From the IMG/VR virus record IMGVR_UViG_3300045988_014126, positions 1 through 5,821 of that record: a DNA stretch of 5,821 bases. One strand, given 5' to 3'. The position numbers and the translations under genes are program-made. Below, piece after piece: positions 1 to 5,821 of this stretch (position 1 is its first letter; every line of letters begins with the position of its first letter). This DNA is from a virus. The notes beneath the pieces were generated by a model that was given only the letters and a program-made list of their open reading frames with translations, ran no database searches and was not told the origin of the DNA.

Positions 1-55
1 AGGACGTGAAGTAGTCGTGGAACTTACCCGCTTTTGCGGGCTTCATTCCGTATAA
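1..55. repeat. Terminal direct repeat (circular-genome assembly overlap), identical to 5767..5821
   Basis: The 55 nt aggacgtgaagtagtcgtggaacttacccgcttttgcgggcttcattccgtataa occur at both window ends. The capsid reading frame runs through the junction without interruption. Confidence 0.95.
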
Positions 56-625
56 CGTTCCTTCGTTTGTGTTGGTTGTTAGGTTCGGTTCGTTTGCATA
101 GTTTGCTATGTCAACTTCTCCGTCAGCAGCCTCTCCGCCATCATCGGTTTTTTTGTATCCCAGCATTAACGGTGCTTCCGTATTTTCGTCTCTGAACCAT
201 TCATTGTAGATCATGGCATATGCGCGTGCTGGTAGTGCGTTGACTTTGATTTTTTTGTTTACTTTTGTAGGCAGTCCGAAGTAGTCTCCAATGCTTCCGC
301 TTTGGATGCCTTTTTCTGTTCCGAAACTGCATTTAGGTGTGCTGTATTCGGTCTTTTCTGCCCAGTAGTTTGTGTCGTTTTCTCCGAACATGTTTTCCCA
401 GTGTTCCCACAGCAGACGACAGGGAACGAAGAAGAAATAGGTGTCCATGTAGCAGTTATCCATGATAGGATAGATGGGTGTGCTCATGCGAATGAGCCCA
501 TTCAGTTGCACTTTTGCGGTATCGCCCGGTAGCACTTCATCACAGTAGATGGGTACAAGTTCACCTTCGTTGATGGTCGTCAACAGCTGGTGACTTCGGT
601 CAAATTTGCTGCGTGGTCGTTCCAT
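1..625 (-). CDS. VP1: Major capsid protein VP1/F, N-terminal part (about aa 1-208); continues across the circular junction into 4724..5821
   Basis: Hand translation of the - strand from ATG (625..623) stays open to the window edge: MERPRSKFDRSHQLLTTINEGELVPIYCDEVLPGDTAKV...GSIGDYFGLP...ALPARAYAMIYNEWFRDEN. These are hallmark N-terminal motifs of Microviridae capsid proteins. The ORF is missing from the ORF track because it runs off the edge. Met at 46 equals Met at 5812, so the two pieces join in frame to give 555 aa. The start codon is uncertain: no SD precedes it, and an in-frame GTG lies at 634. Confidence 0.9.
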   Translation of the reverse strand, partial: MERPRSKFDRSHQLLTTINEGELVPIYCDEVLPGDTAKVQLNGLIRMSTPIYPIMDNCYMDTYFFFVPCRLLWEHWENMFGENDTNYWAEKTEYSTPKCSFGTEKGIQSGSIGDYFGLPTKVNKKIKVNALPARAYAMIYNEWFRDENTEAPLMLGYKKTDDGGEAADGEVDIANYANEPNLTTNTNEGTLYGMKPAKAGKFHDYFTS

Positions 626-650
626 TCGCGGCACTTGTGCGAAATGGTTT

Positions 651-1076
651 TCACTGTTTCGGTTCGTTTTCCTTCACCTCTTCCTTCTTTTCTTCCTCTT
701 TCGGCTTCGGCTGTTCGGTCTGCTGTACCTTTTTCAGCTGTTCCAGCGTTTTGGCTGCTGCTTCCGCCTTTTCGTGCATCTTCATGATATCCTTCGGCAG
801 ATTTTCGAGGTCAGTCCCTTCGGTGTATACCATGCTCTTTGCCTTGATGCTGGTATCCCCCGCTTCCAGTCGTGCGATTGCGCTTGCGAGGTCGTAGCCC
901 TCGCCGGCTCGCTGGATTTTTTCGTATGTGTCCTCATCCGGCTGCTGGACATAGTCGGTAGTGCCGTTCGGTCGCTTGATTGCTTTCCACGTTGGTGCGG
1001 TCTTGCTGCCCGGATTGTTTGCCACTCTCTCGGTCGGTGCGCCGTAGTACCGCACCATTACATCAGGATTTAACAT
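651..1076 (-). CDS. VP3: Internal scaffolding protein, VP3-like (141 aa)
   Basis: The ORF lies immediately upstream of VP1, as in gokushoviruses. An SD (GAAGGAG) sits 7-8 nt before the ATG at 1076, and the ORF overlaps the preceding gene by 14 nt. It has a charged K/E-rich C-terminal tail, and a central segment (GYDLASAIARLEAGD...YTEGTDLENLPKD) resembles remembered VP3 scaffolds. The assignment rests on size, synteny and loose resemblance only. Confidence 0.6.
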   Translation of the reverse strand: MLNPDVMVRYYGAPTERVANNPGSKTAPTWKAIKRPNGTTDYVQQPDEDTYEKIQRAGEGYDLASAIARLEAGDTSIKAKSMVYTEGTDLENLPKDIMKMHEKAEAAAKTLEQLKKVQQTEQPKPKEEEKKEEVKENEPKQ

Positions 1077-1317
1077 TGGCCGTCTCCTTCAGGTCGATGA
1101 GCCGTGCGATGTGTTCAGGCATTGCTTCGCTCATGTAGCCCGTTTCGGTGTCGAATTCGCCTAGTTCTACGAGTGAAATATCTTCGATTTCACTCGGCTT
1201 GCTTTCGTTTGCTTTCCAGCGTGCCGTTCGCACTGCCTGTGCCCTGTTGTTCTGTAGGAACGGCTGTGAGTAGCCATTGGTGAGTGCATCGTGGAATGAA
1301 TAGAATTTCAGTTTCAT
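1063..1317 (-). CDS. VP5: VP5-like small nonstructural protein (84 aa; gokushovirus ORF5 family, proposed role in ssDNA synthesis/packaging)
   Basis: The SD AAAGGAG lies 7 nt upstream of the ATG at 1317. The pattern MKLKFYSFHD....YSQPF...N...A.R ... ELGEFDTETG matches the remembered VP5 signature (F.V.D.....PF......A.R.F ... L.E.G.FD.ETG). Its position upstream of VP3 fits gokushovirus synteny. Confidence 0.6.
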   Translation of the reverse strand: MKLKFYSFHDALTNGYSQPFLQNNRAQAVRTARWKANESKPSEIEDISLVELGEFDTETGYMSEAMPEHIARLIDLKETANVKS

Positions 1318-1329
1318 GTTTTTTCTCCT

Positions 1330-1446
1330 TTACTCTTTGTCTTTATTCGCGTCTTTCAGTGCGTGGTAGATTTCATCGAGCTTTTCAAGGATGTTCATCA
1401 TCAGTGCAATTGCTTCCTTAACGTCCTTGACCTTGATTAATGCCAT
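1330..1446 (-). CDS. Hypothetical small protein, 38 aa (below the ORF-track cutoff)
   Basis: Hand translation gives MALIKVKDVKEAIALMMNILEKLDEIYHALKDANKDKE*. A G-rich SD (AAAGGGGG) lies 6 nt upstream of the ATG at 1446. The TAA stop is embedded in the SD of the next gene (TAAAGGAG). The ORF fills an otherwise empty gap in a tightly packed operon and looks like an amphipathic helix without a TM segment. Confidence 0.45.
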   Translation of the reverse strand: MALIKVKDVKEAIALMMNILEKLDEIYHALKDANKDKE

Positions 1447-1475
1447 TTTATGCCCCCTTTCTTTGTTTGTATTGT

Positions 1476-1592
1476 TTACAATCTGATTCCGCCTCTTGAT
1501 ACTTTCGGGCGAACGTTGATGTTTTTTACCCGCTTTGCAGTCTGGGTAAAACGTTTCTGATCGCCTCGACCTGCTCCGCTTCTGTGTGCCAT
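1476..1592 (-). CDS. Small highly basic DNA-binding/packaging protein, J-like (VP8-like), 38 aa
   Basis: The ATG at 1592 is preceded by a strong SD (AAAGGAGTGAACAAATG). The product MAHRSGAGRGDQKRFTQTAKRVKNINVRPKVSRGGIRL is R/K rich and ends in the RGGIRL-type C-terminus remembered from microvirus J-like proteins. phiX174 J is also 38 aa. The ORF track extends this frame to 1664 (62 aa), but that upstream start has a poorer SD. Confidence 0.65.
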   Translation of the reverse strand: MAHRSGAGRGDQKRFTQTAKRVKNINVRPKVSRGGIRL

Positions 1593-1737
1593 TTGTTCAC
1601 TCCTTTTTTGTTTTTTCTGTTTCGTCCTCAATTTGCTTTTTTGGTCTGGTCTCGTGCATTCCATGATTTCATTGCTTATCCTTCTTTCCAGGTTATGGTG
1701 TCATTTGATTATCGCTTGATCCTGATACGTTTCATTG

Positions 1738-2130
1738 TCACACCCCCTTTCTGTATTTTTTTCCGGTTCTCACATCAAAGTGCACCCAACTTTTGTACAC
1801 GATAATGCCGCATTCATTCGGGATTAATTCATTCAGTTTGTTGGCAACTTCTTTTGGATTCATTCCATCCACCCGGAAGTCTGCGGCCATGCCGCGCATG
1901 TGATATGAGTATTTTGCTCCACCACATTTTGCGTTCCACTCTGGTGTTCTGTATCCGCTGGTGATTATTACTGGTTTTCCCAGTTTATGTCGGAGGATGT
2001 CCAGAACGTTGTATAAGTAGTCGTCTATGAATACTACCGGACTGCCGTCTTTACACGCAAATTCTTTTACTTTGAAGTGTCTAGCAAGCTGTACATTTCC
2101 GTCTGTGTTCAGTATATAGCTTTTAATCAT
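1738..2130 (-). CDS. Peptidase M15 family (LAS-fold zinc D-Ala-D-Ala carboxypeptidase / endolysin-like cell-wall hydrolase), about 130 aa
   Basis: Zinc-ligand motifs are readable directly: SGYR...SYHMRGMAAD fits S-x-H-x-x-G-x-A-x-D, and a second His lies in WVHFDV. The N-terminal FKVKEFACKDG is typical of Peptidase_M15_3-like proteins. The preferred start is the ATG at 2130, with GGAGG (2140..2144) 9 nt upstream and an ATGATTAA overlap with the stop of the previous ORF. The track start at 2160 is a TTG. Confidence 0.85.
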   Translation of the reverse strand: MIKSYILNTDGNVQLARHFKVKEFACKDGSPVVFIDDYLYNVLDILRHKLGKPVIITSGYRTPEWNAKCGGAKYSYHMRGMAADFRVDGMNPKEVANKLNELIPNECGIIVYKSWVHFDVRTGKKYRKGV

Positions 2131-2314
2131 CTTCGTCAACCTCCGTGAAGTATATTTCAACCGTTTCGATTCTTTTCAGTGAATACAATCCCGGGTTTTC
2201 TTTTGCGTATGCTTCTGCACGTTTTTTCGCGTCCCTTGGCTCTTCTGTCATTCTGAGTACTGTTGTTGTGATTCCATTGCTGTTTAAATCTCTGAGTTCG
2301 TATTGGTGTTTCAT
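2123..2314 (-). CDS. Hypothetical protein, 63 aa, hydrophilic with an acidic C-terminal tail (EVDEDD)
   Basis: The ATG at 2314 follows AAGGAG (2323..2328) with an 8-nt spacer. The stop overlaps the start of the M15 peptidase gene, suggesting translational coupling. No motif recognised and no TM segment. Confidence 0.6.
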   Translation of the reverse strand: MKHQYELRDLNSNGITTTVLRMTEEPRDAKKRAEAYAKENPGLYSLKRIETVEIYFTEVDEDD

Positions 2315-2341
2315 TTTAATTTCTCCTTTCTTTCTGATTCT

Positions 2342-2370
2342 ATTATATCATATGTCAATAGGGCTTTAAA
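2342..2370 (-). promoter_or_regulatory. Candidate sigma70-type extended -10 promoter for the orf63/peptidase module
   Basis: The - strand reads TTTAAA (2370..2365), a 17-nt spacer, then TGATATAAT (TGn + TATAAT, 2350..2342). This lies about 28 nt upstream of the orf63 ATG and just upstream of its SD. The -10 is perfect and the -35 matches 4 of 6. A perfect TTGACA (2358..2353) also occurs but only 5 nt from the -10, so it is not used in this model. Confidence 0.4.
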
Positions 2371-2499
2371 TGATTTTGGTGTTTTGTAATATATTTGTAA
2401 CCTGGTTTTGCTCCTTTGTTTTGAAAGCGCTTTAGCGCCTTGCCGTGCGGAGCGCATGCGGAGCTCGGCTAAATCCATTCCTTTTTAGCGCTGTGCGCG

Positions 2500-3504
2500 T
2501 CATACTTTCGGTTCACGCCATTTTTGCTTTAGCTTGTCTTTTTCTTTCTGAATGTTGAGATAGGTTTCATAATCCACGCTTGTGTTCTGTTCGAGATTGA
2601 CTAAACTTTGTATTGCGTTGCGTCTCCGTTTGGCTCTAACCTCTCTCAGCTCGTCAGAATGTGCCCTAAAATAGCTTTCTGTGTCTTGGCTGGTATTTTT
2701 ATCTAGAATCTTATCAAAATAGCGTGGTGGCCTTTTCTCGCGTCCTCCTGCGCATATGATGCTATCTGTTTTCAAGATTTCATCTTTGTGTTCGTTTAGA
2801 TACTTTTCGCCGATTCCTTTCGACATGATTCTAAACTCTGGTTCTCTGCCTTGCATCCAGTATTTTGCCTCTTGCTCTGCACCTATGGCTTTTTTGTTGA
2901 CGTACTGTGCTACATATGCGTAGCTGCCCGGCTGTGCTGGTGAAAAGTCTATCATGCCTTTGCCCCATATTTTTTGTAACCACTCGCTTTTAAAATAGCT
3001 GTTGCCTTTTTGGTTTTTGTACCATTGTGCATCCGGTGGCTTTAGCCCAAATATTATCGCATGGTAGTGTGGTCTTTTTGTTCTGTCGCCGTATTCGGCT
3101 GCTAGGAAGTATTTTATTGGCTTTTTGTACGCTTTCCTTAGCCGTTTTAGAAATAGCTGCACGTCTCGTTTGCTTACTGTCTGACTTTGAATGCTTTTGT
3201 AGCCTTTGATGATCTCGCCGTAAGGTATGTGTTCATCGTCATACGTCAGTGTTAGAAAAATTACATCGTCCCATTCTTTGGCTTCTAGTTCTATTCTGGT
3301 TGCCCATTGGTCAGCCATCTGTTTGCGGCAATATTCGCACTTACCGCATGGTAACAATGCGAATTTTCCTTTTTTGATTCCGTCCATGATGTCCGCTTGT
3401 AGTCCTTGTTTTGATAGGCTTTCCAGACTTCCCCACAGTTGTGGTTTTTTCGTATCCATTTGAAATACTAATGGTTTTGTACATGGCATTTTTGTTACCG
3501 GCAC
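2500..3504 (-). CDS. VP4: Replication initiation protein VP4 (HUH rolling-circle endonuclease, phiX174 gpA family)
   Basis: Three rolling-circle Rep motifs are present: FLTLTYDDEH (motif 1), RPHYHAIIFG (HUH, motif 2) and YAYVAQYVNKK (two-tyrosine motif 3, nearly identical to phiX174 gpA YVAKYVNK). There is also a CGKCEYCR Cys cluster. The track start at 3504 is a GTG. The ATG at 3489 (MPCTKPL...) resembles typical VP4 N-termini and is an equally plausible start. Confidence 0.92.
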   Translation of the reverse strand: MPVTKMPCTKPLVFQMDTKKPQLWGSLESLSKQGLQADIMDGIKKGKFALLPCGKCEYCRKQMADQWATRIELEAKEWDDVIFLTLTYDDEHIPYGEIIKGYKSIQSQTVSKRDVQLFLKRLRKAYKKPIKYFLAAEYGDRTKRPHYHAIIFGLKPPDAQWYKNQKGNSYFKSEWLQKIWGKGMIDFSPAQPGSYAYVAQYVNKKAIGAEQEAKYWMQGREPEFRIMSKGIGEKYLNEHKDEILKTDSIICAGGREKRPPRYFDKILDKNTSQDTESYFRAHSDELREVRAKRRRNAIQSLVNLEQNTSVDYETYLNIQKEKDKLKQKWREPKV

Positions 3505-3531
3505 AAGCTTCCTTGTCTATCTTGTGCCGGT
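3497..3531 (-). promoter_or_regulatory. Stem-loop covering the rep translation-initiation region
   Basis: An inverted repeat pairs ccggcacaag (3498..3507) with cttgtgccgg (3521..3530), plus an A:T pair at 3497/3531, giving an 11-bp stem and a 13-nt loop. On the coding strand the loop displays AAGGAAG (SD-like), and the 3' arm of the stem contains the GTG at 3504..3502. The ATG at 3489 lies 8 nt past the stem. Confidence 0.55.
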
Positions 3532-3564
3532 TGACACCTCGCTTTCTTTATATATTAACTTGTT

Positions 3565-3585
3565 GTAGTCGTAGTAGTAGTAGTG
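3565..3585. repeat. Trinucleotide microsatellite (GTN)7 including perfect (GTA)4
   Basis: The sequence gta gtc gta gta gta gta gtg runs directly into the first TGTTGAA iteron. (GTA)4 occupies 3571..3582. Confidence 0.85.
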
Positions 3586-3752
3586 TTGAAAGTGTTGAAA
3601 ACTCGTTTTTTTAACGTTAATACGTTTATTTATTGCCTTTTTCCCTGTTGAAAACTTTGTTGAAAACTTGTTGAATTGTTGAATGTTCGTCATTTTGACG
3701 AATTTCTTTGTGCAACTTGTTGTTGAAAACCTGTTGAAAGTGTTGAAAACTC
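3584..3752. repeat. Iteron-like array: nine copies of TGTTGAA(A/T) in three clusters, bounded by a 21-nt perfect direct repeat
   Basis: TGTTGAA cores start at 3584, 3593 | 3646, 3658, 3669, 3677 | 3721, 3732, 3741, with intra-cluster spacing of 8-12 nt. The 21-mer tgttgaaagtgttgaaaactc occurs at 3584..3604 and again at 3732..3752. The whole array lies in the only long noncoding region, between the VP2 stop and the rep start. Confidence 0.85.
3686..3702. repeat. Perfect 7-bp inverted repeat (ttcgtca ttt tgacgaa) between iteron clusters B and C
   Basis: This was read directly: arms 3686..3692 and 3696..3702 with a 3-nt loop. A 10-bp palindrome ttaacgttaa (3611..3620) lies between clusters A and B, and gaaaac tcaa gttttc (3745..3760) follows cluster C. 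Confidence 0.7.
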
Positions 3753-3796
3753 AAGTTTTCCACATTCTCTATTTTTTGGATTATTGTTGTTTAAAA

Positions 3797-3818
3797 GGGG
3801 GATGTTTTACCATCCCCC
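3797..3818 (-). terminator. Candidate rho-independent terminator after VP2
   Basis: On the - strand, GGGGGATG gtaaaa CATCCCCC forms an 8-bp stem that is mostly G:C. It is followed by TTTT and starts 9 nt after the VP2 TAA stop (3830..3828). The T-tract is only 4 nt long. Confidence 0.5.
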
Positions 3819-3827
3819 CTTCCTTTC

Positions 3828-4685
3828 TTAGTTTCCTCTGTATGCGTTGAATGTGTCCATGTTTGGCATGATCGGTACTCTTTGGTTGTATTTTTTGTAT
3901 TTTCCCGCTGTGTCTTTGGCTGCTTCACCAGCTTTTTTTGCCGCGTCTTTGGCCGCCTTACCAGCTCCTGCAAGGCCTGCGCCTAACTTGTTTGCCGCAT
4001 AGCTGTACTGTTGTGCCTGTTTTGCACTTGAGCTTGCTAGTTCGCTTGCCGATTGTTCCCAGCTTTTTGCCGCTTTGATCTGTTTTGCGCTGGTGGCCTG
4101 TTTTGCTAGCTGTAAGTATTTGTCTGCTAGCTCTGCTGTGTTGTTGCCGTATTCATACATTGCTGATACGCTTGCGGCCTGTGCGCTTTGCTGGTTATAA
4201 TGCTGGCTTCCAATGCTTGCTGATGCTCCTGCTGGTGCGCTTGTTGCGCCGTTGGTCGCTGCCAGAATAGGATTGATGCCCGCTGCGATCATGTCCTTTA
4301 CGGTGTCCTGATAGGCTGTCCCGCGCATCTCCTTTTGAAATGCTCGTTCCGCTGCTGCTTCTGCGCTGTTGTACTTCTTGGCGCTTGCTTGGCTTCCAGC
4401 GTTCGCGAGGTTGCTCAGCAGTCCGCTCATCATTTGCAGTGCGTTTGCTGTGTTTACGCTGCTCTGATTGCCGAATGTGGCAATACCTGTAGGTGTGCTG
4501 ATTTGTGTTGCGCCTATCTGCTGCGGTGCTGTTATACTGCCGGTTGTGGTTTCGTTGCCTGTGCTGCTCTCGCTGCCTGTCCCTTGGCTGTTTTTGGCGC
4601 TGCTCTGGTTACTGCTTGTTATGATGCCTGTTAGCATGCTTAATCCTTGCATGAGGTACGGCATGAAGCTTAACAATGTTTCCAT
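3828..4685 (-). CDS. VP2: Minor capsid / DNA pilot protein VP2 (H-like), 285 aa
   Basis: The motif AERAFQKEMRGTAYQDTVKDMIAAGINPILA matches the conserved pilot-protein core (ER..NTAYQR.V.DM..AG.NP). The N-terminus is hydrophobic (METLLSFMPYLMQGLSMLTGII), and the rest is low-complexity S/T/G/Q/A-rich sequence with an A/K-rich tail. The position directly after VP1 fits. Confidence 0.85.
   Translation of the reverse strand: METLLSFMPYLMQGLSMLTGIITSSNQSSAKNSQGTGSESSTGNETTTGSITAPQQIGATQISTPTGIATFGNQSSVNTANALQMMSGLLSNLANAGSQASAKKYNSAEAAAERAFQKEMRGTAYQDTVKDMIAAGINPILAATNGATSAPAGASASIGSQHYNQQSAQAASVSAMYEYGNNTAELADKYLQLAKQATSAKQIKAAKSWEQSASELASSSAKQAQQYSYAANKLGAGLAGAGKAAKDAAKKAGEAAKDTAGKYKKYNQRVPIMPNMDTFNAYRGN
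3912..3966 (-). repeat. In-frame 33-nt tandem duplication inside the VP2 C-terminal tail
   Basis: gtctttggctgcttcaccagct (3912..3933) and gtctttggccgccttaccagct (3945..3966) match at 19 of 22 positions with a 33-nt period (11 codons). They encode AGKAAKDAAKK / AGEAAKDTAGK. Confidence 0.6.
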
Positions 4686-4693
4686 TCAAAAAT

Positions 4694-4713
4694 AGCCCCG
4701 CTTTTGCGGGGCT
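4694..4713 (-). terminator. GC-rich hairpin with U-tract between VP1 stop and VP2 start (partial terminator/attenuator; also bridges SD to ATG)
   Basis: The - strand reads AAAAAAGGAGGA AGCCCCGC AAAA GCGGGGCT ATTTTTGA ATG: an 8-bp stem, a 4-nt loop and a run of 5 T. The hairpin lies in the 38-nt gap between the VP1 TAA (4726..4724) and the VP2 ATG (4685). Confidence 0.55.
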
Positions 4714-4723
4714 TCCTCCTTTT

Positions 4724-5821
4724 TTAAATTCTTTCAATTCCGGGAATGCTGTAAATAGGCATCTCCCTGAACCAGTTTTCTGTGAAATAGAAGTCGCACA
4801 AGAACTGGTGCGATACGTTGCTTGTCACTGCAATCGTTCGGTCAATGTTCTGTGTTCCCTCTTGAATCCACTCCGCCGAGAGGCGCGGAAGTGCTTCATA
4901 ATCGTCTGCATAGTGCCATGCGTCCAAACTTGCCTGATAGTTCGATCGCATTTCTCCGGTTACGTAAGATGGCTTGTAGCGGTAATCCGCCCAAGCCTCC
5001 TGGTAGCCGAAGATTTCTTCGTCTTCATGAGTGCCTTGTGCATAGATTTCACGGTTATACACTGGCTGTTCGCCCAGTGCTGCCAATCGCGGATCGTAGT
5101 ATGTGAACCGCCCGCCACGCGTCCACTTGGTCGCAAGTCCTTGCTGGTAGCTGTGCTCTACTCGTACCACTGCCAGACCAATGATATAGCCGTATTCGGT
5201 CGCCGCATAGTCCACCATCTGCTTGCTACATGTGGTCAGACTGTATGCAGCCGTATTGCCCAGCGCCTGTCCGGTTGTCGTGTCTGTCTGGCTCGTCTGC
5301 ACAACCTGATTGACATTGATGGCGATGCGCTGACCGCCGATGTATTCAGGAATCTGTAGCCGGCTGTCCGGGCTTGTTACGCCCCATGTACCAGACAGGA
5401 ATTCACGGTATCTCGTGCCGTTTCTGGCGTCTGCTTCAAAGATGTGCTGCAAGGCAATTGCCATGCGCAAGTCTTGTATGCTGATTGCGCTTACGTTGCT
5501 AAGGTTTGCGCCTAGATATGCAACATCAAGTACTTGTTCTGTTGAGCTTGCGCTGCCTGTAACAAGTGAAGTTCTTGCTCCTTCTACATTGCTGTTGCCG
5601 ATGTTTGGCGCTAAAGCGCTTCCTGTTAACGTTTGGTTAAGGAAGATTTGATTTTTTCCTGCTACTGTCCCGAATTCTGTGAGATCTTGGTTTTTGTACA
5701 GTCCTACTGGTGCATTGCCCGTCAGGTTGATTTCCACAGGGTCAGATTTCAACGGACTTGGCAGACAGGACGTGAAGTAGTCGTGGAACTTACCCGCTTT
5801 TGCGGGCTTCATTCCGTATAA
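4724..5821 (-). CDS. VP1: Major capsid protein VP1/F, C-terminal part (aa 191-555); N-terminus is at 625..56 across the circular junction
   Basis: The 362-aa track ORF stays open upstream to the window edge. It contains conserved capsid motifs: FHDYFTSCLP, SIQDLRMAIALQHIFEADARNGTRYREFL and RLQIPEYIGG. An N/S/T/G-rich segment (about 5494..5749) sits where gokushovirus capsids carry their variable surface insertion. Confidence 0.92.
   Translation of the reverse strand, partial: LYGMKPAKAGKFHDYFTSCLPSPLKSDPVEINLTGNAPVGLYKNQDLTEFGTVAGKNQIFLNQTLTGSALAPNIGNSNVEGARTSLVTGSASSTEQVLDVAYLGANLSNVSAISIQDLRMAIALQHIFEADARNGTRYREFLSGTWGVTSPDSRLQIPEYIGGQRIAINVNQVVQTSQTDTTTGQALGNTAAYSLTTCSKQMVDYAATEYGYIIGLAVVRVEHSYQQGLATKWTRGGRFTYYDPRLAALGEQPVYNREIYAQGTHEDEEIFGYQEAWADYRYKPSYVTGEMRSNYQASLDAWHYADDYEALPRLSAEWIQEGTQNIDRTIAVTSNVSHQFLCDFYFTENWFREMPIYSIPGIERI
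5767..5821. repeat. Terminal direct repeat, second copy of 1..55
   Basis: Exact 55-nt identity with the window start. Confidence 0.95.

Follow-up and report, generated by a model that had tools for sequence, protein, structure and literature searches.

The window analyzed here is positions 1 to 5821 of IMG/VR virus record IMGVR_UViG_3300045988_014126, a gokushovirus genome of 5821 nt with all of its genes on the minus strand. Between the genes for a VP2-like protein and the replication initiator VP4 lies a field of short repeats (approximately 3546-3764) that we read, from sequence comparison and with a probability of about two in three, as the unwinding end of a host chromosomal origin, copied or mimicked by the phage. 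In this module, nine co-oriented variant DnaA boxes are joined by a single inverted box of consensus sequence. The boxes form three clusters in helical phase; one box pair abuts a run of DnaA-trios, and an AT-rich stretch completes the module. Comparison with bacterial and phage genomes established the anatomy of the module and its match to natural chromosomal origins (oriC), and showed it to be conserved, mobile, and accessory.

The heptamer TGTTGAA occurs nine times in the window, always on the plus strand and always between 3584 and 3747. The expected count is 1.09, and none of 200 dinucleotide-preserving shuffles reached nine, in agreement with an earlier sequence-only reading that had placed the repeats far beyond chance. 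That reading had also given a spacing of about one helical turn within clusters, and the measured start-to-start distances are 9 nt in cluster C, 12, 11, and 8 nt in cluster B, and 11 and 9 nt in cluster A (8-12 nt overall). A 21-nt perfect direct repeat, TGTTGAAAGTGTTGAAAACTC, at 3584-3604 and 3732-3752, and palindromes at 3611-3620 and 3686-3702 were likewise found where they had been reported. The point overlooked was that the nine repeats are themselves predicted DnaA boxes of a host variant. Read on the minus (coding) strand, the repeat is (T)TTTCAACA, with 1 mismatch to the DnaA-box consensus TTWTNCACA. Cluster C (3584-3601, minus strand) contains two adjacent, co-oriented predicted boxes, TTTTCAACA at 3601-3593 and CTTTCAACA at 3592-3584. 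Cluster B (3646-3685, minus strand) contains four co-oriented predicted boxes, namely TTTTCAACA at 3654-3646 and again at 3666-3658, AATTCAACA at 3677-3669, and CATTCAACA at 3685-3677. The three co-oriented predicted boxes of cluster A (3721-3749, minus strand) are TTTTCAACA at 3729-3721, CTTTCAACA at 3740-3732, and TTTTCAACA at 3749-3741. A lone inverted box, TTTTCCACA, is predicted on the plus strand at 3756-3764; it had been called DnaA-box-like, is a perfect match to TTWTNCACA, and can pair with the adjacent repeat.

As described in the literature, the basal unwinding system (BUS) of bacterial origins has a pair of DnaA boxes separated by a short spacer from three or more DnaA-trios with the consensus 3'-GAT-5'. 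The trio element has been defined as (NAN) repeated at least three times with that consensus (PMC8287927), and the trio sequence of Clostridioides difficile oriC2 is CACCTACTACTATTACTACTATGA (PMC7561715). By its sequence, cluster C is the predicted trio-proximal box pair of such a system. Its first box, TTTTCAACA, differs from TTATCCACA at 2 positions and from TTWTNCACA at 1, where a BUS allows up to 2 mismatches or a species-specific box; its second box, CTTTCAACA, has 3 mismatches and follows in the same orientation with a gap of 0, where up to 4 mismatches and up to 3 bp are allowed. The cluster abuts a run of six trios, TAG TCG TAG TAG TAG TAG (3566-3583, the noncoding plus strand), which fits the 3'-GAT-5' consensus and has a spacer of 0 to the first repeat; a BUS has at least three trios within 0-16 bp of the box. 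The triplet run had been noted before as a (GTA)4 microsatellite; the run is real, and its register is that of DnaA-trios. Directly beyond the trios is AACAAGTTAATATATAAAG, an AT-rich stretch placed like the unwinding stretch of a BUS and like that of the host loci described below. This AT-rich tail, in the position of a DNA-unwinding element, spans 3546-3565 and together with 3566-3568 forms a conserved phage-specific sequence, CTACAACAAGTTAATATATAAAG on the viral strand. The pattern of box, box, and (CTA)n was found once in the window and in none of 2000 shuffles.

Bacterial counterparts of the array were sought in one genome per bacterial species with a pattern of three adjacent repeats, a scan that samples the taxonomic range of the box variant. 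Among the matches listed were arrays of TTTTCAACA and TTTTCCACA in genomes of Oscillospiraceae, Ruminococcus, and Clostridiales. In at least four of the genomes (L090, L107, L112, and L139), the array fills the spacer between dnaA and dnaN, the flanking genes being DnaA and DnaN by Pfam. The dnaA-dnaN spacer is the position of oriC in Firmicutes. TTTTCAACA is the dominant box of these host origins, accounting for 15 of 15 boxes in L139 and for 16 in L107, versus 6 copies of TTTTCCACA and 1 of TTATCCACA. At the end of the host origins, two neighbouring boxes in one orientation are followed by a frequently C-rich stretch of 0-5 nt, by (CTA)4-5, and then by AT-rich DNA, as can be seen by comparing the ending in L090, agttTTCAACAgtTTCAACAccccCTACTACTACTACTAaacatatata, with that of the phage, gagttTTCAACActTTCAACACTACTACTACTACGACTACaacaagttaatatata. 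The trio run and AT-rich stretch sit identically in all four host loci and have the same polarity relative to the boxes as in the phage; it was against these natural spacers, not a published statement, that the polarity rule for the trios was checked. A short inverted repeat and an A-tract comparable to those of the phage precede the last box pair of the host origins. The bacterial loci were checked for prophage, and no phage genes were found. The origin-like architecture perceived by the sequence-only reading thus matches the unwinding end of a clostridial oriC, and of the ligands it had considered, a host factor, here DnaA, is the probable one.

Many matches from the triple-repeat scan were unrelated and were discarded: TTCAACA/TTAAACA satellites of Bacteroidota, and coding tandem repeats in Microcystis, Stappiaceae, and giant-virus contigs. 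Five metagenome-assembled genomes (MAGs) of Bacteroidota (L079, L116, L144, L169, and L069) had long satellite arrays of TTCAACA/TTAAACA/TTCAACG, often beside other short satellites and unrelated to DnaA-box arrays. One other contig, L081, from a MAG labelled Anaerolineae, carried the same box, trio, and AT-rich module at the contig end (approximately 7100-7660), not flanked by dnaA or dnaN. The upstream open reading frames (ORFs) are ones that we take, from the look of their sequence rather than from a tool, to be cdaA and ybbR. Misbinning or chimerism of the contig could account for this, as could a further replicon that bears the module.

The DnaA proteins of the four host genomes were also compared. 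Their recognition helix reads DHSTIVY, versus DHTTV(L/I)H in Escherichia coli, Bacillus subtilis, and Aquifex. Six base-contact residues of DnaA are listed in PMC7561715, and three of them are changed in the host proteins relative to E. coli and B. subtilis (the conserved P423 to V, N, or A; T435S; and H439Y), which fits the altered box variant. These features look like those of a naturally occurring variant of DnaA specificity in Oscillospiraceae/Ruminococcaceae, one that would use TTTTCAACA rather than TTATCCACA. The shared box sequence also points to Oscillospiraceae/Ruminococcaceae as the hosts of these gokushoviruses.

Conservation of the element among phages was examined at several distances. 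The nearest GenBank relative of the window is Human gut gokushovirus KX513876, with 84.7% identity genome-wide versus 96% in the spacer between VP2 and VP4. A blastn search retrieved 49 phage GenBank records with the spacer alone and 11 with the whole genome. Among 54 close IMG/VR relatives, nearly all had 7-9 repeats upstream of VP4, and pattern scans added more than 119 contigs, mostly microvirus genomes of 5-6 kb. The element, approximately 220 nt long, is present in more than 140 distinct gokushovirus genomes. The sequence-only reading had named related microviruses as the place to look for the motif; the array was present there, and in 143 unique elements, with a mean of 8.7 boxes, box positions were fixed within 1-2 nt relative to the tail. 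Cluster C lies at -31 and -22, cluster B at -116, -108, -97, and -85 (within 1 nt), and cluster A at approximately -189 to -159, leaving gaps of 54 and 43-44 nt, or about 5 and 4 helical turns, between clusters. Individual copies alternate in relatives with the perfect box TTTTCCACA, often one in cluster A. The tail columns were 90-99% conserved in this set, which was chosen partly by the tail motif itself; tail variants were also present in elements retrieved by a different pattern.

The spacers between clusters were less uniform, with columns 50-90% conserved. The A/T-rich spacer between clusters B and C (3602-3645) contains the palindrome TTAACGTTAA at 3611-3620, the base pairing of which was kept in 36-81% of related elements. 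The spacer between clusters A and B (3686-3720) contains a 7-bp hairpin, TTCGTCA/TGACGAA (3686-3702), and a conserved GTGCAACTT; 47-94% of elements preserved the stem pairs, in which CG and TA were sometimes exchanged, and covariation of these small hairpins was weak. Folding of the field as single-stranded DNA (ssDNA), another check proposed earlier, gave nothing unusual (z = -1.8 and -1.6 for the two strands), and the palindromes are therefore minor features. The pairing of the GAAAAC ends that the sequence-only reading had described exists in the window; however, only about one in three related elements retained GAAAAC/GTTTTC pairing with the inverted box. The inverted box itself, as TGTGGAAAA, was found in 53 of the 143 unique elements, and the remainder had a forward box at that position.

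The place and orientation of the element varied. In the clade of the window (VP4 at least 80% identical), it lies between VP2 and VP4 on the coding strand. In clades with VP4 33-42% identical, it is mostly 100-400 nt downstream of VP4 and inverted. Relative to the coding strand, 83 elements were inverted and 71 had the same orientation, with exceptions both ways. MG945447 and MG945233 have common flanks with an element of approximately 210 nt cleanly inverted between them. A close relative, L018 (IMGVR_UViG_3300045988_015275; VP4 95% identical to that of the window), has a short VP2-VP4 spacer and carries the cassette inverted downstream of VP4, which indicates a recent relocation. A sister clade of 28 genomes (VP1 54-62% identical), whose set of genes is the same, had neither the array nor the tail motif, and no other box cluster was found in it; its VP1 is closer to that of the window than is the VP1 of distant carriers. 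Across GenBank, 49 of 2926 records with a VP1 homologue had a detectable copy, and blastn against PLSDB plasmids gave no match. Given this variable place and orientation and this patchy presence, the element is a conserved accessory cassette, independent of position and orientation. The idea that the cassette sets the packaged strand was unsupported because AT skew and GC skew at third codon positions (GC3) of the coding strand were equal in genomes with direct and inverted cassettes.

Several further observations were made on genomes carrying, or related to those carrying, the cassette. In 47 of 118 related genomes (including L058-L060, L002, L057, L302, L305, and L312), and not in the window, there was a GC-rich tract of alternating purines and pyrimidines, 18 nt or longer (for example, GCGCGCGCACGTGCGCGCGC...TGCGCGCGTGCGCGCGCG) and prone to form a cruciform or Z-DNA; it lay 11-86 nt past the AT-rich tail of the cassette and never on the other side. 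In the main noncoding region of the sister clade (L415-L442), promoter-like sequence follows a conserved GCGTTTTTTTTTTTTTGGTAAAAT tract. A 4740-nt contig, L306, has a truncated array fused to the 3' part of VP4, which suggests misassembly or a genome that is defective or rearranged. Another contig, L017, is 10.7 kb long, approximately twice the unit length.

Among known systems, the element most resembles the BUS of bacterial oriC, as in the B. subtilis incC region (boxes 6 and 7 with DnaA-trios) and C. difficile oriC2: each has a co-oriented box pair, 3'-GAT-5' trios, an AT-rich stretch, and distal clusters. Motif by motif, its layout nearly coincides with that of the dnaA-dnaN spacers in at least four Oscillospiraceae, Ruminococcus, and Clostridiales genomes. 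It differs in lying between VP2 and VP4 on a 5.8-kb ssDNA phage that replicates by rolling circle, away from any chromosomal dnaA or dnaN, and is therefore BUS-like and not a chromosomal oriC. It is also compact (approximately 220 nt), has boxes in nearly one orientation, has the phage-specific tail part CAACAAGTT, and behaves as a mobile, invertible, and dispensable cassette. Mobile replicons such as P1 oriR, pSC101, F, R6K, and RK2 recruit host DnaA through boxes in their origins, a subject reviewed in PMC4980987. Those boxes flank iterons for the replicon's own Rep, which opens the DNA; the phage element, in contrast, has no separate Rep iterons and has the trio and unwinding part of a chromosome.

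Other explanations were weighed against this one. We consider it unlikely that the array is mainly a sponge that titrates host DnaA, altering host initiation and DnaA-regulated genes with no role as a phage origin. Dense clusters of DnaA boxes outside the chromosomal origin, such as E. coli datA, the B. subtilis DnaA-box clusters, and inc regions of multicopy plasmids, could sequester DnaA (a topic of PMC3245932), and the phage array is a dense cluster too. Such a role would suit an accessory element that occurs in any orientation and position and that brings nine to ten boxes per genome to a replicative form present in many copies, and all of the DnaA-box evidence presented above applies to it equally. 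However, titration needs neither a co-oriented box pair abutting trios nor an AT-rich tail. Clusters of the datA type are without a unit of box pair, trios, and AT-rich stretch, whereas the phage element has one, and its trio and AT-rich parts are unaccounted for by titration. The box pair, trios, and tail are the most conserved columns and hold a fixed spacing, which counts against pure titration.

A single-strand initiation signal, whereby DnaA-box hairpins of the ABC-primosome type or the trio strand would prime the complementary strand on packaged ssDNA, is improbable. Masai and Arai reportedly described a DnaA-box hairpin as a priming signal in 1990, a precedent for this proposal. The inverted box of the phage, being able to pair with the adjacent repeat, can likewise form a hairpin on ssDNA, and genomes with an inverted cassette carry the trio strand on the coding strand. 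Unlike the ABC-primosome signal, however, the phage hairpin is unconserved, with its inverted box in only 53 of 143 elements, and the folding scores and partly kept hairpin pairs reported above reveal no stable conserved structure. Both polarities are common, as the counts of inverted and same-strand elements show when the coding strand is taken as the packaged strand, as in known Microviridae, and this argues against a strand-specific role on ssDNA. The presence of the element in both orientations relative to the coding strand likewise speaks against the complementary-strand origin or packaging signal suggested by the sequence-only reading.

It is very improbable that the repeats are iterons for VP4, or part of the core rolling-circle origin with an HUH initiator bound beside its nick site, as the comparison to iterons of Rep-encoding HUH replicons in the sequence-only reading would have it. 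The element always adjoins VP4, and iterons next to the nick site are typical of HUH replicons; those of geminiviruses, circoviruses, and pT181-type plasmids are, like these, short direct repeats at about one helical turn beside rep. The tail, CAACAAG/TTATATAATA, also loosely resembles what we take to be the phiX174 origin sequence, CAACTTG/ATATTAATAAC. Yet the repeats and their spacing are constant in genomes with VP4 33-96% identical, and so do not co-vary with Rep as HUH iterons would; they are unchanged even at 33-40%. The same repeats fill bacterial dnaA-dnaN spacers, and the sister clade, which must have a Rep origin, has neither array nor tail. The cassette is inverted in most distant genomes with no change in coding-strand skew. 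Constant repeats over divergent VP4, the match to host oriC, absence from the sister clade, and free orientation together argue against VP4 iterons or the core rolling-circle origin as an explanation, and the equal skews in both orientations and the sister clade without a tail make a role of the tail as nick site unlikely.

An operator array for another host regulator, either Spo0A or a response regulator of the OmpR/PhoB type binding direct repeats, is scarcely credible: the 0A box TGTCGAA is 1 mismatch from TGTTGAA, the direct repeats are 8-12 nt apart, phage phi29 uses 0A boxes, and the candidate host orders include spore formers, but no copy has the CG core of the 0A box, copies swap with TTCCACA and not TTCGACA, and the trios and the dnaA-dnaN association are specific to DnaA.

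Some observations weigh against the reading of the field as the unwinding end of a host origin. Alignments of phage and host origins extend over short stretches only (30-64 nt), and ancient capture and convergent mimicry are therefore indistinguishable. All phage boxes except one share an orientation, whereas host origins mix orientations. The window has no GC-rich spacer between the box pair and the first trio, where relatives and hosts have 3-5 nt. The tail part CAACAAGTT is not in host origins, and the conserved phage tail CTACAACAAGTTA was not in those compared. Finally, oriC of B. subtilis requires a second box region upstream of dnaA for autonomous function, and the phage cassette may thus open DNA without firing.

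If the field is indeed such an unwinding end, we infer that DnaA binding, unwinding, and every later step would proceed as follows. On the double-stranded replicative form, host DnaA-ATP would occupy the boxes, and the proximal pair would steer a DnaA filament onto the TAG (trio) strand. The distal clusters, about 5 and 4 helical turns away, would boost the local concentration of DnaA; distal boxes of B. subtilis have been reported to do so, and to act in a phasing-dependent manner. The AT-rich tail would then melt, and host helicase and primosome/primase would be loaded. The outcome would be DnaA-dependent replication, priming, or maintenance of the replicative form, besides the rolling-circle replication driven by VP4. 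Array copies in the hundreds would also titrate DnaA, either as a side effect or as the main purpose. More tentatively, and at somewhat less than even odds, this lineage-hopping cassette could let the replicative form run as a DnaA-dependent mini-chromosome, with theta-type amplification or plasmid-like persistence in the absence of an integrase. Perhaps, although we find this doubtful, melting of the AT-rich tail by DnaA could bare the conserved CAACAAGTTATATA for nicking by VP4.

The setting of the cassette in the genome is that of a gokushovirus. The major capsid gene spans the window ends (Phage_F, E = 3.5e-98, Pfam). Upstream of the element is the VP2-like gene (3828-4685, minus strand), whose counterpart is annotated as VP2 in KX513876 and KT264784; downstream is the gene for VP4, the HUH Rep (2500-3504, minus strand; Pfam PF23343 REP_ORF2-G2P, E = 6e-21). 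An M15 peptidase is encoded at 1738-2160 on the minus strand. The VP2-VP4 spacer (3505-3827, 323 nt) had been taken for the sole noncoding region; no other gap between minus-strand ORFs is as large, although smaller ones are present. Outside the element, the VP2 stop codon is directly followed by a symmetric, terminator-like GC hairpin (3797-3818, minus strand), behind which the coding strand has a T-run; the cassette is therefore downstream of a likely transcription stop. A scan of 3400-3900 for sigma-70 promoters found none, and an Rfam scan of the whole window found no family, only a chance snoRNA match (E = 0.26).

A perfect 11-bp hairpin, ACCGGCACAAG/CTTGTGCCGGT, with a 13-nt loop was found at 3497-3531 (minus strand), between a Shine-Dalgarno-like GAGGTG and the VP4 ATG at 3489. 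Its stem covaries in KT264784 and KX513864, and it is limited to the clade of the window. The hairpin may draw the ribosome-binding site near the start codon or regulate translation of VP4; as a universal origin it was rejected because distant clades have coding sequence at that place. On the coding strand, A exceeds T, with an AT skew of +0.33 to +0.37 in the window and approximately 120 related genomes regardless of cassette orientation. The genome of phiX174 is T-rich, the opposite bias.

That plasmid and phage origins can contain DnaA boxes is well known. In the full-text literature searched, nothing linked Microviridae or gokushoviruses with iterons, DnaA, or DnaA boxes, consistent with the view of the sequence-only reading that the feature is undescribed in microviruses, and no DnaA-trios had been placed in any phage genome. 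What is new is a complete host-type unit of box pair, trios, and AT-rich stretch as a mobile accessory cassette of a rolling-circle ssDNA phage. Because the phage boxes match a host-specific DnaA box, a host could be assigned by sequence only, which yields a testable prediction (Oscillospiraceae/Ruminococcaceae) for gut gokushoviruses that are abundant and lack a cultured host. The comparison also exposes a putative DnaA specificity variant, in which the TTTTCAACA box goes with P423V/N/A, T435S, and H439Y, and the cassette, as a naturally minimised origin of approximately 220 nt, would be useful for studies of box-trio unwinding. Microviruses serve as the textbook case of rolling-circle phages, and their replication is thought to require the phage's own Rep together with host elongation factors. 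If the replicative form does act as a mini-chromosome, this would be the first virus-borne DnaA-box/DnaA-trio origin. A DnaA origin module of host type in microviruses would add a second layer of replication control that hijacks the host initiator, or would let them take over the host by titrating DnaA, and it might also open a way to persist as episomes in the gut.

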